Under the pieces are notes generated by a model. The model was not told the origin of the DNA, ran no database searches, and was given only the letters and a program-made list of their open reading frames with translations. Positions 1,197-4,698 of a stretch of 5,190 nucleotides of DNA are shown one piece after another (within the stretch, counting starts at the first letter, position 1; every line of letters starts with the position of its first letter). The translations under genes were made by a program, and so were the position numbers. Origin of the DNA: Escherichia coli (lineage in GTDB: Bacteria > Pseudomonadota > Gammaproteobacteria > Enterobacterales > Enterobacteriaceae); assembly GCF_003334815.1 (NCBI RefSeq), contig NZ_QOWO01000074.1; one strand, given 5' to 3'.

Positions 1197-1633
1197 CAGC
1201 GTAACTCCCGCGTCCTGTGTATCACGTGAGTGACAACACCAAAAATACAGATGTTTTCCGGATACAGTGTGCGGAATTCCGGGCTGTCTGAAACCGGCTC
1301 CAGTGCCGGGCGTGGGCGCAACAGCAGTCGTTTGACGGTGAACTCACCGTCGATCTCAGCGATAACGATGTCCCCGTGTTGTGGTTTCTCGGCCCTGTCC
1401 ACTACCAGCAGATCACCATTCTGCACGCCAGCTTGGTTCATCGATTCACCGCTGGCGCGCAGAAAGAAGGTGGCTGCAGGTCTGCTGATGCAATAGCTGT
1501 TCAGATCCAGTTCCTGCTCAGCATAATCAGTGGCAGGCGAAGGAAAACCGGCCTGGCAACGATCGGCAAACAACGGTCGCACGTAACTGTCATCGCCTGA
1601 AGGGTCAGCCGGACGGTGATAAACGGTACTCAT
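1196..1633 (-). CDS. impA: UmuD/MucA/ImpA-like SOS mutagenesis protein (LexA-like S24 self-cleaving peptidase), 145 aa
   Basis: ORF-track protein MSTVYHRPADPSGDDSYVRPLFADRCQAGFPSPATDYAEQ... contains the UmuD-family hallmarks: an Ala-Gly cleavage region (CQAGFPSPA), the catalytic Ser motif (ASGESM) and Lys motif (FTVKRL). Length is typical. Stop overlaps the downstream polymerase start; start overlaps the upstream impC stop. Confidence 0.9.
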   Translation of the reverse strand: MSTVYHRPADPSGDDSYVRPLFADRCQAGFPSPATDYAEQELDLNSYCISRPAATFFLRASGESMNQAGVQNGDLLVVDRAEKPQHGDIVIAEIDGEFTVKRLLLRPRPALEPVSDSPEFRTLYPENICIFGVVTHVIHRTRELR

Positions 1634-1878
1634 GCTGCAGGCAGCCAGCTGTCGTCCTGCCAGATTTCTTCCAGCAGAGACAGGATACGTTCTTTATCCT
1701 TGTCGTTGCGGGCTCCTGTGACAGATACAGACGGGGCGCTGCCCTGGTCTATACGCAGCCAGATTTCCGGGTAGTGTGGTTTCAGACGTTGTTCGATTTC
1801 ATTCTGTAGCGCCTGAAGTGTGCCTGATTTGAGGTTTTTTGTGCTCTGGCGGTCGAAAAGAATTTCAATGCGGATCAT
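1630..1878 (-). CDS. impC: DinI-like small SOS regulator (ImpC-like), 82 aa from the internal ATG
   Basis: From ATG at 1878..1876 the product MIRIEILFDRQS...VSVTGARNDKDKERILSLLEEIWQDDSWLPAA aligns to the DinI family (RIE start, VSV core, acidic/Trp C-terminal). A Shine-Dalgarno GGGAGA lies about 7 nt upstream. The ORF track extends to an ATG at 1938 (102 aa), but that would place the LexA box inside the coding region, so I prefer the 1878 start. The three-gene order small DinI-like / UmuD-like / UmuC-like is the basis for the imp symbols. Confidence 0.75.
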   Translation of the reverse strand: MIRIEILFDRQSTKNLKSGTLQALQNEIEQRLKPHYPEIWLRIDQGSAPSVSVTGARNDKDKERILSLLEEIWQDDSWLPAA

Positions 1879-1899
1879 GTTCTCATCTCCCTTTTCTAT

Positions 1900-1919
1900 T
1901 GCTGTATGCATATACAGTA
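1900..1919 (-). promoter_or_regulatory. LexA operator (SOS box) for the impCAB-like operon
   Basis: tgCTGTatgcatatACAGta: perfect CTGT-N8-ACAG palindrome (CTGT 1902..1905, ACAG 1914..1917) with AT-rich spacer and TA flanks, 22 bp upstream of the impC start and abutting the candidate -10. Confidence 0.8.
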
Positions 1920-1948
1920 TTCTAATAACTGAATCCACACACAGTCAA
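1919..1948 (-). promoter_or_regulatory. Candidate sigma70 promoter for impCAB (-35 TTGACT, -10 TAGAAT, 18-nt spacer)
   Basis: Minus-strand TTGACT at 1948..1943 and TAGAAT at 1924..1919. The -10 abuts the LexA box, the usual layout for SOS-repressed promoters. Hexamers read by eye; start site unknown. Confidence 0.4.
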
Positions 1949-1992
1949 ATGTCATTATTGTGACTAAAAAACGCTCAATTCTCTGGGAGTGT

Positions 1993-2022
1993 GGCTGTAT
2001 GCCTGCTGTGGACTGCTGTGTC
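1993..2022. repeat. Short tandem direct repeat, 10-bp period (CTGCTGTG core, two clear copies plus one degenerate)
   Basis: ctgctgtg at 2003..2010 and 2013..2020 exactly 10 bp apart, preceded by the related ctgtatgc at 1995..2002. Lies in the divergent intergenic region upstream of the impC -35. Confidence 0.3.
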
Positions 2023-2081
2023 CAGCTTATCCACAGCATTTTGCGCACGGTTCTGTGAATAAAATACCTGGTTACCCAGGC

Positions 2082-2093
2082 CGTGCCGGCACG
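2082..2093. promoter_or_regulatory. Perfect 12-bp palindrome CGTGCCGGCACG (candidate operator or structure)
   Basis: Self-complementary 12-mer in the GC-rich leader upstream of the intron-interrupted gene. No known factor assigned. Confidence 0.25.
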
Positions 2094-2189
2094 TTAACCG
2101 GGCTGCATCCGATGCAAGTGTGTCGCTGTCGCCGGCCTCCTCACCCGGTCACGTTTCGTCGTTCCTCCTCCACGCGCTGCGGCTTCGGG

Positions 2190-2233
2190 GCCGCACCTGC
2201 ATTCGTATGCGGTCGCCCGGTTACAGGTGCGGC
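2190..2233 (+). repeat. Inverted repeat / stem-loop, 10-bp perfect stem (GCCGCACCTG ... CAGGTGCGGC) with 24-nt loop
   Basis: 2190..2199 is the exact reverse complement of 2224..2233. A second small hairpin (ggcct/aggcc, 2236..2250) follows. Both sit in the 5' leader about 40-80 nt upstream of the ATG at 2272; no T-run follows, so not a typical intrinsic terminator. Confidence 0.35.
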
Positions 2234-2271
2234 ACGGCCTGATGGAGGCCGCATGTGAGAGGAGAATTCCC

Positions 2272-2292
2272 ATGCCAAACTGGTGCTCGAAT
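2272..2292 (+). CDS. Host gene exon 1 (7 codons, MPNWCSN) of an intron-interrupted hypothetical protein
   Basis: Strong Shine-Dalgarno GAGAGGAG (2257..2264) 7 nt before ATG at 2272. The 7 codons end exactly at the inferred intron 5' junction and join in frame to the long open frame beginning at 4699. Depends on the inferred intron boundaries. Confidence 0.4.
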
Positions 2293-2900
2293 GTGCGACA
2301 TGAAGTCGTCTGAATAATTGTTCCAGCGGAGTTCGATTCCGTCAGGGAACCTGATGTTCCGTCATCAGTAGCCTACTGACACATGCGTCACTGGTAACGG
2401 TGGGGTGTGAAGCTGTCAGGACAATGAAACCGGATCTTCGGATCGCATGAAACCGTGAGGTTACATGTAATCTGCCAGCATCAGGCGGAGGAGGTCTAGG
2501 CTCGGTAGCATGACTAACATATGTGAACTGCTGAAGCGTCGTTAACCAGAACAAGCCAAAGATGCTGACAGGCTTGAACCAAAAGGTATGTGGTTGGTTA
2601 CTCCTCTGTTTGCTAGGGGTACACGGACAATAAACCACCGGTGTTGTGAGCAGAGTCTAACCTACTGTTGTTATTCAGGTGGAACATGGTAAGCCCGTAT
2701 CGCTGCCTCGTGAGGCAGGTTAACCGCAAGGGATACTGTTGGCGGTGCGGGTAAAAGAAGGTGGAAAAAGCGAATGCCAGTCTGTAATGGACCGGATAAG
2801 GGTTGAGCCCGGCAACATTACCCTACGCGAAAGCGGGCAGACTTCCACTGGGTCTTTCATTACGAGAGAGTTTGAGTAATCTTCCAGAAAGGAAAAGCAG

Positions 2901-4625
2901 ATGACTGAGCAGGCTACAACCTGTAAAGGTGCGTCCTTACTTAACGGTGACTCCTGGCACAGTATCAACTGGCGTCAGTGCTATCGGGAAGTGCGGAGAC
3001 TGCAAGCGCGTATCGTAAAGGCAACACGAGAAGGTAAACATGGCAAGGTCAAATCCTTGCAATGGATACTGACTCACTCGTTTAGTGGCAGAGCAGTTGC
3101 TGTCAGACGAGTTACAGAGAATAGCGGGAAACGTACTCCTGGGGTTGATGGTCAGACATGGTCTTCCCCGGAGGTTAAATTTCTTGCTATTAACCTGCTG
3201 AAACGGCGTGGTTACAAACCACAGCCACTTAAGCGGGTTTATATACCTAAGTCAAATGGGAAGTCTCGTCCCCTTGGGATACCCACTATGAAGGATCGGG
3301 CGATGCAGGCGTTGTATTTGCTGGCTCTTGAGCCCGTTGCTGAAGTCACTGCTGACCAGAGATCCTTCGGCTTTCGGACTGGAAGGTCTACTGCAGATGC
3401 GATAGCACAGTGCTTCTGTGTTCTTGCGCAGAAAACATCCGCTGAATGGGTGCTTGAGGGGGATATACGGGGATGCTTTGACAATATATCTCATCAATGG
3501 CTAATCGATAACACCTCAACAGACAGACAAATCCTGACAAAGTGGCTTAAAGCGGGTTACAGGGAAAATGGGCAGTTATTCCCTGTAAATTCAGGAACTC
3601 CTCAGGGGGGAATAATTTCTCCTGTACTGGCTAACATTGCTCTGGATGGACTGGAGGCGCTTCTTGCGTCGGAGTTTAAAAAGAGAACAGTCAAGGGACG
3701 ATTGGTTAACCCGAAAGTTAACTATGTGAGATATGCTGATGATTTTATTATCACTGGAGAGTCAAAAGAACTTCTTGAGTCTCAGGTATTACCCGTCGTC
3801 AGGCGGTTTATGGCTGAAAGAGGATTAATGCTTTCTCCTGAAAAGACGAAAATCACACATATCGAGGAAGGATTTGATTTTCTTGGACAGAACATTCGCA
3901 AATATGGCGGTAAGATGCTGATCAAACCCTCTAAAGCCAATGTCAGTTCCTTTTTAAAGAAAATACGCGCTGTAATCAAAGGCAACAAAGCTATGGATCA
4001 GCTTACGTTGATCCGCATGCTGAACCCAATGATCAAAGGGTGGGCGGCTTACCATCAACACATTGTGGCCAAGGTCGCATTTAACAAAGTTGACAATGAG
4101 ATCTGGCTGGCTTTATGGCGTTGGGCCGTTCGGCGTCATCCCAATAAGGGAAAGAAGTGGATTCGGAAAAGATATTTCCATCAACAAGGTGCCCGAAACT
4201 GGTCTTTCTCCGTGGCTACCGGAGAACTCCTTGCCAACGGTAAGCCTCAGTATGCAAATCTGAGGAAAGCAATCGATACGCCTATCAACCGGTTTAAACC
4301 GATTAAAATCGCAGCTAATCCGTTCGATCCTCAATGGGAGATGTACTTTGAGGAGCGTTGTGCAGACAAAATGCGGCACAAACTGCAAGGACGGAAAAAG
4401 CTCATTCAAATCTGGTTTGAGCAGCGGGGCCGATGCCCCATATGTGATGAGAGGATTACATCTGATTCCCAGTGGCAGGTTCATCACATCATACGGCGAG
4501 TCGATGGAGGGAGCGACTGCCTCTCCAATTTGATTATGCTGCATCCGATGTGTCACACACTTGTTCATGCGAAAGGTATACATGTAGTGAAACCGGCTCA
4601 TGAGAGTGGGCTTAGAAAGGCTTGA
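2901..4625 (+). CDS. Group II intron-encoded protein: reverse transcriptase / maturase / HNH endonuclease, 574 aa
   Basis: ORF-track protein has RT motifs (RVYIPKSNGKSRPLGIPTMKDR, GCFDNISH, SGTPQGGIISPVLANIAL, VRYADDFII), a maturase X region (MIKGWAAYHQH) and a C-terminal HNH/Cys module (CPICDERI...HHIIRRVDGG...CHTLVH). SD AAGGA 7 nt upstream. Stop overlaps the first bases of domain V. Confidence 0.95.
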   Translation: MTEQATTCKGASLLNGDSWHSINWRQCYREVRRLQARIVKATREGKHGKVKSLQWILTHSFSGRAVAVRRVTENSGKRTPGVDGQTWSSPEVKFLAINLLKRRGYKPQPLKRVYIPKSNGKSRPLGIPTMKDRAMQALYLLALEPVAEVTADQRSFGFRTGRSTADAIAQCFCVLAQKTSAEWVLEGDIRGCFDNISHQWLIDNTSTDRQILTKWLKAGYRENGQLFPVNSGTPQGGIISPVLANIALDGLEALLASEFKKRTVKGRLVNPKVNYVRYADDFIITGESKELLESQVLPVVRRFMAERGLMLSPEKTKITHIEEGFDFLGQNIRKYGGKMLIKPSKANVSSFLKKIRAVIKGNKAMDQLTLIRMLNPMIKGWAAYHQHIVAKVAFNKVDNEIWLALWRWAVRRHPNKGKKWIRKRYFHQQGARNWSFSVATGELLANGKPQYANLRKAIDTPINRFKPIKIAANPFDPQWEMYFEERCADKMRHKLQGRKKLIQIWFEQRGRCPICDERITSDSQWQVHHIIRRVDGGSDCLSNLIMLHPMCHTLVHAKGIHVVKPAHESGLRKA

Positions 4626-4698
4626 GCCGTATGCCGGGAAACTGGCACGTACGGTTCTTAGGGGGCGGTGATGCAGTAATGCATCACTGCTACCCGAT
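4624..4698 (+). ncRNA. Group II intron catalytic domain V and domain VI (branch-point helix) up to the 3' splice site
   Basis: DV: GAGCCGUAUGCCGG-GAAA-CUGGCACGUACGGUUC (4624..4657). DVI: 15-bp helix 4661..4675 / 4680..4695 with GUAA loop and a single unpaired A at 4692, six nt before the ...GAU 3' end. Confidence 0.8.

Follow-up and report, generated by a model that had tools for sequence, protein, structure and literature searches.

A hairpin homologous to class 2 single-stranded DNA promoters precedes the plasmid gene that hosts the group II intron EcI5

RNA sequencing of donor-depleted matings, combined with rapid amplification of cDNA 5' ends (5'RACE), has shown that pESBL, which is closely related to plasmid pEK204, carries six operons that undergo zygotic induction, and their promoters were sorted into three classes, with ssi1-3 in class 1, the ardA and klcA hairpins in class 2, and M.EcoGIX in class 3 (Wen 2025, PMC12672017). 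For class 2 promoters, transcription starts have been mapped by 5'RACE and zygotic induction has been demonstrated (Wen 2025, PMC12672017; Fraikin 2026 preprint). The mobile group II intron EcI5 has its natural home in plasmid pO157 (PMC8643678). Here we analyze a stretch of 5,190 nucleotides (nt) from Escherichia coli (assembly GCF_003334815.1, contig NZ_QOWO01000074.1), referred to throughout as the window, in which EcI5 interrupts a plus-strand gene encoding a DUF1281 protein. An initial annotation had placed this gene about 390 bp from impC, the first gene of the divergent impCAB operon, and the gap is indeed 393 bp (1879-2271, between ATG 1878 on the minus strand and ATG 2272 on the plus strand). 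Within the gap lies a long hairpin that is almost certainly homologous to the class 2 (ssp2) single-stranded DNA (ssDNA) promoters. By analogy with these, we favor the reading, as somewhat more probable than its competitors taken together, that the hairpin acts as an ssDNA promoter for the DUF1281 gene upon conjugative entry.

The features on which this reading depends are the following.

2077..2241, minus strand: long imperfect hairpin, a short-type relative of class 2 / ssp2 elements (covariance-model match 2068-2250)
2112..2117, minus strand: -35-like hexamer TTGCAT in the 3' arm, with its first T in a G.T wobble pair
2091..2096, minus strand: -10-like hexamer TAACGT in the 3' arm, 15 nt past the -35-like hexamer
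2231..2237, plus strand: predicted transcription start, at about 2234, by analogy with class 2
2257..2265, plus strand: Shine-Dalgarno sequence GAGAGGAGA of the DUF1281 gene, read directly, 7 nt to ATG 2272
2272..2292, plus strand: exon 1 of the DUF1281 gene, seven codons (MPNWCSN), with the junction placed by the intron-less copies in F and pEK204
2293-4698, plus strand: group II intron EcI5, delimited by comparison with intron-less copies

The hairpin is 165 nt long and imperfect, with arms at 2077-2103 and 2215-2241, and the GC-rich segment that it occupies folds as ssDNA with z scores of -2.9 and -3.3 for the two strands (plus strand -3.3). It aligns with the pEK204 sequences directly upstream of ardA and of a klcA-like gene, as well as with the candidates Frpo' 4, Frpo* 1, and Frpo* 3 (Samuel et al. 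2024, PMC11541004, Supplementary Table 2). Identity of the hairpin is at least 99% in 4062 of the 5000 top-scoring plasmid records kept by the search, so direct orthologues could not be used to look for covariation. A family search across one genome per species, using the 3'-arm pattern CTTG-N11-GCCCGGYTA-N9-CACGGC, returned 58 stretches, nearly all from Enterobacterales. Removing redundancy left 52 members, which arm distance separates into class 2 proper, the long class (213-225 nt), and a short class (153-166 nt) that includes the window (153 nt). When 19 short members were aligned, the consensus comprised 44 pairs, 96.4% of the cells were paired, and 16 pairs had changed on both sides; no shuffle among 500 came up to these values, and pairing fell to 34-43% once the partner was displaced by 1-3 columns. 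Two checks addressed circularity, namely retrieval by 5'-arm and loop anchors only and a model built without the window. That covariance model, based on 18 members from other genera, matches the minus strand of the window at 2068-2250 with 87.1 bits (E 7.6e-20) and the plus strand with 26.6 bits. It also matches the ardA, klcA, and F-ssp2 hairpins at 63-75 bits, along with an unreported copy in plasmid F (NC_002483.1, 5652-5834) at 88 bits, which lies upstream of a frameshifted DUF1281 gene. A BLAST search of the window with class 1 elements (Frpo1/2, ssi1-3, ssiD) gave no match at E up to 1e-3, whereas the same five reference elements match strongly elsewhere in pEK204 and in the IncF locus.

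Exact E. coli-type or class 2 hairpins also appeared in assemblies labelled Alicyclobacillus, Aeromicrobium, Raphidiopsis, Oscillibacter, Lachnospiraceae, Streptomyces morookaense, and Collinsella; these copies most likely reflect contigs contaminated with enterobacterial plasmid DNA.

The position and strand of the hairpin also follow the family. Relatives lie 22-32 nt before the start codons of genes for M.EcoGIX-like ssDNA methylases, ArdA, KlcA/ArdB, and a few unknown proteins, and the window copy is 22 nt from its ATG. In pEK204 and in p2RM8082, a 100%-identical plasmid that bears the intron, the DUF1281 gene faces nikA/oriT, about 19 kb away, as do the methylase and klcA-like genes and ssb, psiB, and ardA. 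It follows that the window's minus strand is both the transferred strand and the template of the host gene. In pEK204, the canonical Frpo/ssi elements precede ssb and two further operons, and ssi1-3 share the strand of the hairpin match.

How might such an element drive the gene? The plasmid would enter the recipient as ssDNA and the hairpin would fold on the transferred (minus) strand, its 3' arm presenting TTGCAT, 15 nt, and TAACGT as a pseudo-duplex promoter. Host RNA polymerase would then start near 2234, transcribing out of the hairpin base along the transferred strand; going by class 2, the start should fall about 7 nt past the -10-like hexamer, at 2084, which pairs with 2234 in the fold, giving a 5' untranslated region (UTR) of about 38 nt. 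The transcript would run through the Shine-Dalgarno sequence, exon 1, the EcI5 intron, and the rest of the DUF1281 gene until complementary-strand synthesis removed the hairpin and switched the promoter off. The sequence of the family is in keeping with this scheme. TTG of the -35-like hexamer is kept family-wide, with a G.T pair at its first T in 17 of the 19 aligned members, and TAnnnT occurs in essentially all members, though its final T lies outside the search pattern. Members retrieved by the 5'-arm and loop anchors alone still carry TTG...TAnnnT, and TAACGT itself occurs in three other lineages. What the analysis shows for the window copy is homology, structure, strand, position, and orientation; its promoter activity is inferred.

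Is the hairpin a DNA element or an RNA leader? The initial annotation had described a GC-rich structured leader, and the structure is real, but a hairpin formed by the transferred DNA strand accounts for it better. Under an RNA-leader explanation, a weak sigma70 promoter at about 2040-2065, with TAAAAT as its -10, would produce a long folded 5' UTR that controls translation or termination. The plus strand does fold well too, as its z score of -3.3 indicates, and TAAAAT is present at 2060-2065, where the initial annotation had singled it out as the best candidate while finding no convincing plus-strand promoter by eye. A promoter scan of 1600-2500 likewise finds no plus-strand sigma70 promoter, and TAAAAT is not conserved as a -10, being replaced by CAAAAT in IncF copies even though the hairpin there is unchanged; we rejected it as a promoter on both counts. 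A curated leader RNA or riboswitch was also rejected, as no Rfam family matches 1879-2271 at E up to 1 and the only Rfam matches of the window are to group II intron domains, at 2350-2496 and 4615-4698. The family itself speaks for the opposite, transferred strand. Read on that strand, its non-Watson-Crick pairs comprise 36 G.T and 4 A.C, the latter being how a wobble selected on the other strand would appear; the transferred strand folds more stably in all 19 members (mean -55.0 versus -47.1 kcal/mol); the alignment consensus fold is -20.8 kcal/mol for the transferred and -9.4 kcal/mol for the opposite strand; and the covariance model separates the two in the same direction (87 bits minus versus 27 bits plus). 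We thus regard an RNA leader as very improbable.

Between the hairpin and impCAB lies a second, smaller structure, accompanied by predicted DnaA boxes.

2004..2038, either strand: nested inverted repeat TGCTGTGGA / TCCACAGCA, with inner GCTG / CAGC, from an inverted-repeat search
2027..2035, plus strand: predicted perfect DnaA box TTATCCACA, by sequence match
2054-2062, minus strand: predicted second DnaA box with 1 mismatch, TTATTCACA, inverted, by sequence match

The 10-bp tandem repeat that had been proposed here does not survive scrutiny, with Tandem Repeats Finder reporting none even at a minimum score of 30. All that is present is one pair of neighboring 10-mers, CTGCTGTGGA and CTGCTGTGTC, which agree at 8/10 positions, along with loose TGCTGTATGCA copies, and the 10-mers are the 5' halves of the nested inverted repeat, whose arms pair 2004-2012 with 2030-2038 (DNA fold z -3.6, minus strand). 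A tandem repeat or iteron array was therefore rejected in favor of the nested inverted repeat. The perfect DnaA box overlaps the 3' arm of the stem (2030-2038) by 6 nt, and its distance from the large hairpin is fixed at 41 nt in pEK204 (IncI1), pYSP8-1 (IncF), F, and pO157.

Perfect DnaA boxes in the same orientation and within 200 nt of the hairpin also occur in Rahnella and Pantoea lineages, making three independent lineages against about 0.08 expected by chance. As a general feature of the hairpin family, DnaA boxes were rejected, any box being found in only 7 of the 52 flanks. At the base of the large hairpin, a terminator-like 6-bp stem GCCTGGGTAACCAGGT followed by ATTTTATT (2066-2081, minus strand) might halt antisense transcription short of impCAB; sites of this sort turn up in the scan about as often as expected by chance.

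Several observations weigh against promoter activity of the window copy. Its hexamers are weak, each agreeing with the consensus at 3 of 6 positions, and the 15-nt spacer is short, although the arm and direction are correct. The -10 sits in a 2x3 internal loop and is more base-paired here than in most relatives, which have a bubble of 5-7 nt, and the two strands of the window copy are nearly equal in stability (-50.3 kcal/mol for the transferred strand versus -49.5 kcal/mol). We repeated the hairpin screen of Wen 2025 (300-nt windows, RNAfold with DNA parameters), whose cut-off of -75 kcal/mol is an operational and not a biological definition; the best window of the hairpin scored -73.1 kcal/mol and just missed it, and class 2 and class 3 hairpins scored -87 to -94 kcal/mol. 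DUF1281 is not named among the six induced operons of pESBL (Wen 2025, PMC12672017). For F, a preprint reports that no probable promoter was found ahead of the next gene cluster, and the gene downstream of the hairpin in that plasmid is a frameshifted pseudogene. The published screen may simply have missed the window hairpin, or the hairpin may be weak.

The foremost competing explanation accepts the hairpin as a true ssp2 relative but holds that its promoter has been lost or is weak, and that it is kept as a structural feature of the entering strand, for instance a roadblock or pause site for complementary-strand synthesis, or part of a priming site together with the DnaA-box hairpin. There is precedent in F, where ssp2 is a UvrD-resolved roadblock to complementary-strand synthesis that acts independently of transcription (Fraikin 2026 preprint). 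The missed energy cut-off, the place of the gene outside the six induced operons, the retention of the hairpin in F although its downstream gene is a pseudogene, and the perfect DnaA box at a fixed 41 nt all fit this explanation. Yet this copy, like active relatives, keeps the TTG, the TA...T, the Shine-Dalgarno sequence, and a distance of 22 nt to the ATG; near-invariance in thousands of plasmids with an intact gene fits regulation in cis at least equally well, and in ssp2 the roadblock and promoter roles are compatible. We consider the loss of promoter function unlikely, and continue to prefer an ssDNA promoter for the DUF1281 gene.

The left part of the gap has a different character and a different distribution.

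1902..1917, either strand: LexA operator CTGTATGCATATACAG, directly 3' of the impCAB -10
1919..1948, minus strand: sigma70-type impCAB promoter, found by the promoter scan with 10/12 matches
1630..1878, minus strand: impC, DinI-like, 82 amino acids (aa), first gene of impCAB, from the list of open reading frames (ORFs)
1983..1989, either strand: module seam, impCAB-specific to the left and IncF-shared to the right, from megablast and alignment with pYSP8-1

The LexA box is perfect, as annotated at the outset, and is the sole CTGT-N8-ACAG match in the window, where 0.07 would be expected by chance. The annotated promoter of impC is likewise borne out, with TTGACT (1948-1943), 18 nt, and TAGAAT (1924-1919) just upstream of the LexA box, and it is the only match of the promoter scan in 1600-2500. 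impCAB thus has the arrangement expected of an SOS-regulon promoter, with a CTGT-N8-ACAG box abutting it. In a megablast search of the region against 72,556 plasmids (query start at 1879), about 4,800 plasmid records matched, but in a large IncF group the match starts only at 1983-1989 (query 105-111), at about 96% identity. In pYSP8-1, F, and pO157, this right-hand segment follows directly after sopB/sopC, and impCAB is absent. The region is the seam of two independent modules at the oriT-distal end of the leading region, and the right module (about 1983-2271) belongs to the DUF1281 gene, while the left module (1879 to about 1982) is an ordinary LexA-repressed sigma70 promoter for impCAB, reading leftwards.

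This organization bears on the proposal that the intron-bearing gene and the SOS promoter share a divergent control region. Their adjacency is genuine in the IncI-type plasmid, but the shared region is not, given that the segment from about 1983 to the ATG recurs as a module of its own without impCAB or a LexA box. That LexA at 1902-1917 co-regulates the plus-strand gene, making the intron host SOS-inducible through a shared region, deserves hardly any credence. The two units are physically adjacent in IncI-type plasmids, and conjugative entry of ssDNA is itself reported to induce SOS (PMC2958807), which would allow similar firing times. However, the LexA box overlaps the minus-strand promoter only, about 317 nt and the hairpin separate it from the predicted plus-strand start, and the right-hand module, with or without the intron, mostly occurs without any LexA box; in the copies from F, IncF plasmids, and pO157, the roughly 1 kb upstream contains none. 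LexA control is confined to impCAB. The initial annotation had left room for a signal other than DNA damage, and conjugative entry is now the likeliest one; plasmid transfer is a more probable trigger for the intron's host gene than DNA damage. Because ssDNA entry is also reported to trigger the SOS response of the recipient (PMC2958807), both divergent promoters could respond to transfer, via unrelated mechanisms.

A comparable boundary occurs in the Klebsiella pneumoniae IncFII plasmid pKPC-e937, where a long-type hairpin of the family (3989-4242) has a divergent SOS-response-associated peptidase/umuDC block on one side and an ssDNA methylase gene on the other; the order of SOS-type genes, hairpin, and leading gene is that of the window.

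On the minus strand, the window contains the end of a Y-family polymerase gene, then the umuD-like impA (1196-1633), then impC, whose ATG at 1878 is preceded by a GGAG Shine-Dalgarno sequence and which is annotated in p2RM8082 as a DinI-like protein of 249 nt. The start of ImpC is annotated in two ways. The RefSeq record of pEK204 gives 93 aa, starting at an ATG at window position 1911 (1909-1911), inside the LexA box, and p2RM8082 carries the 82-aa form from 1878 (1876-1878), with the GGAG ribosome-binding site; the 93-aa start is probably an over-extension.

On the plus strand, comparison with intron-less copies gives a spliced DUF1281 product that begins MPNWCSN|RMYFSGE and is 300 aa long. 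A search for its function returned no NCBIfam match, and PHROG matches only to families of unknown function. EcI5 belongs to class IIB1 with a CL1-lineage reverse transcriptase; Rfam places intron domains D1-D4 at 2350-2496 and D5/D6 at 4622-4698, and the intron ORF spans 2901-4625 (574 aa). Plasmid records with an identical intron junction number 182, one of them pO157 of E. coli O157:H7 Sakai, and only about half a dozen among the best matches combine the intron with an adjoining impC, so the IncI-type setting of the window is the rarer context. In plasmid F (NC_002483.1, about 5880-6400), the DUF1281 gene is frameshifted (...LPEKPCRLTC* versus ...LPEKTMPFDLL...) and does not appear in the gene table, which may be why the F locus escaped studies of the leading region.

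If the hairpin is an ssDNA promoter, the DUF1281 gene and EcI5 would be expressed transiently from the entering strand, an idea that would replace coupling to SOS. The zygotic-induction program of F, pO157, and IncI1 plasmids would gain an unrecognized promoter, DUF1281 would become a candidate establishment or anti-defense protein, and the location of a model group II intron would have a natural rationale. Native expression of EcI5 may thus be coupled to conjugation. A more far-reaching version, possible but on balance doubtful, is that each plasmid entry sets off a burst of intron RNA and reverse transcriptase, coupling retroelement expression (possibly retrohoming) to conjugation, that the module is the fifth (F) or seventh (IncI1) ssDNA promoter, unreported so far, at the distal edge of the leading region, and that the DnaA-box hairpin could load the replicative helicase. 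As far as the literature shows, the native site of EcI5 just 3' of an ssp2-type hairpin has apparently not been discussed.

For the promoters themselves, the family shows that class 2 has a shorter variant that is widespread across Enterobacterales and usually precedes ssDNA methylase genes, and that a fixed energy cut-off can miss shorter variants of this class. In pEK204, the strongest of the hairpins immediately 5' of the M.EcoGIX-like methylase gene (20561-20860, -93.6 kcal/mol) is presumably the class 3 promoter. It overlaps an ORF annotated as a 103-aa "hypothetical protein" (20487-20798), found also in IncF plasmids and p2RM8082, which may not be a real gene.

How does the locus compare with known systems? 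Its left part corresponds exactly to the LexA-repressed, umuDC-like impCAB operon of IncI1 plasmids (Lodwick et al. 1990, as relayed in PMC11541004), a likeness that concerns the minus-strand operon only. The small inverted repeat resembles the A site of the ABC primosome in having a predicted perfect DnaA box that falls partly within a small hairpin's stem, in DNA entering the cell single-stranded; unlike that site, the window has only 6 of the 9 box positions in the stem.

The class 1 Frpo and ssi1-3 elements of F and ColIb-P9 (Masai and Arai 1997; Couturier 2023, PMC9849209) lie in the same leading region and are likewise hairpins of the transferred strand that rebuild -35 and -10 elements, active in their case only before complementary-strand synthesis, but they share no sequence similarity with the window hairpin.

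The class 2 / ssp2 elements that precede ardA and klcA/ardB in pESBL and F, for which one preprint uses the name "Frpo3", belong to the same covariance-model family as the window hairpin, agree with it in strand, orientation to the gene, and spacing to the start codon, and share the blocks GCCGTG...CGGGCG...AAGCCGCA...CGGGTGA...CTTG-N11-GCCCGGYTA-N9-CACGGC. The window copy differs in being about 60 nt shorter (arm distance 153 versus 213-225 nt) and less stable (-73 versus -87 kcal/mol per 300 nt), and in having TAACGT in a smaller bubble where class 2 has TAAGAT. It precedes a DUF1281 gene and is a predicted promoter, whereas the starts of class 2 have been mapped.

Two low-certainty candidates, Frpo* 1 and Frpo* 3 (Samuel 2024, PMC11541004), are short-type as well and agree with the window hairpin in architecture and size class; our alignment contains both, as its two Candidatus Erwinia dacicola sequences. 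They come from other genera, precede KlcA-like and methylase genes, and are likewise candidates by virtue of their sequence. The window hairpin is thus an additional member, of a short variant, of a recently described kind of element.

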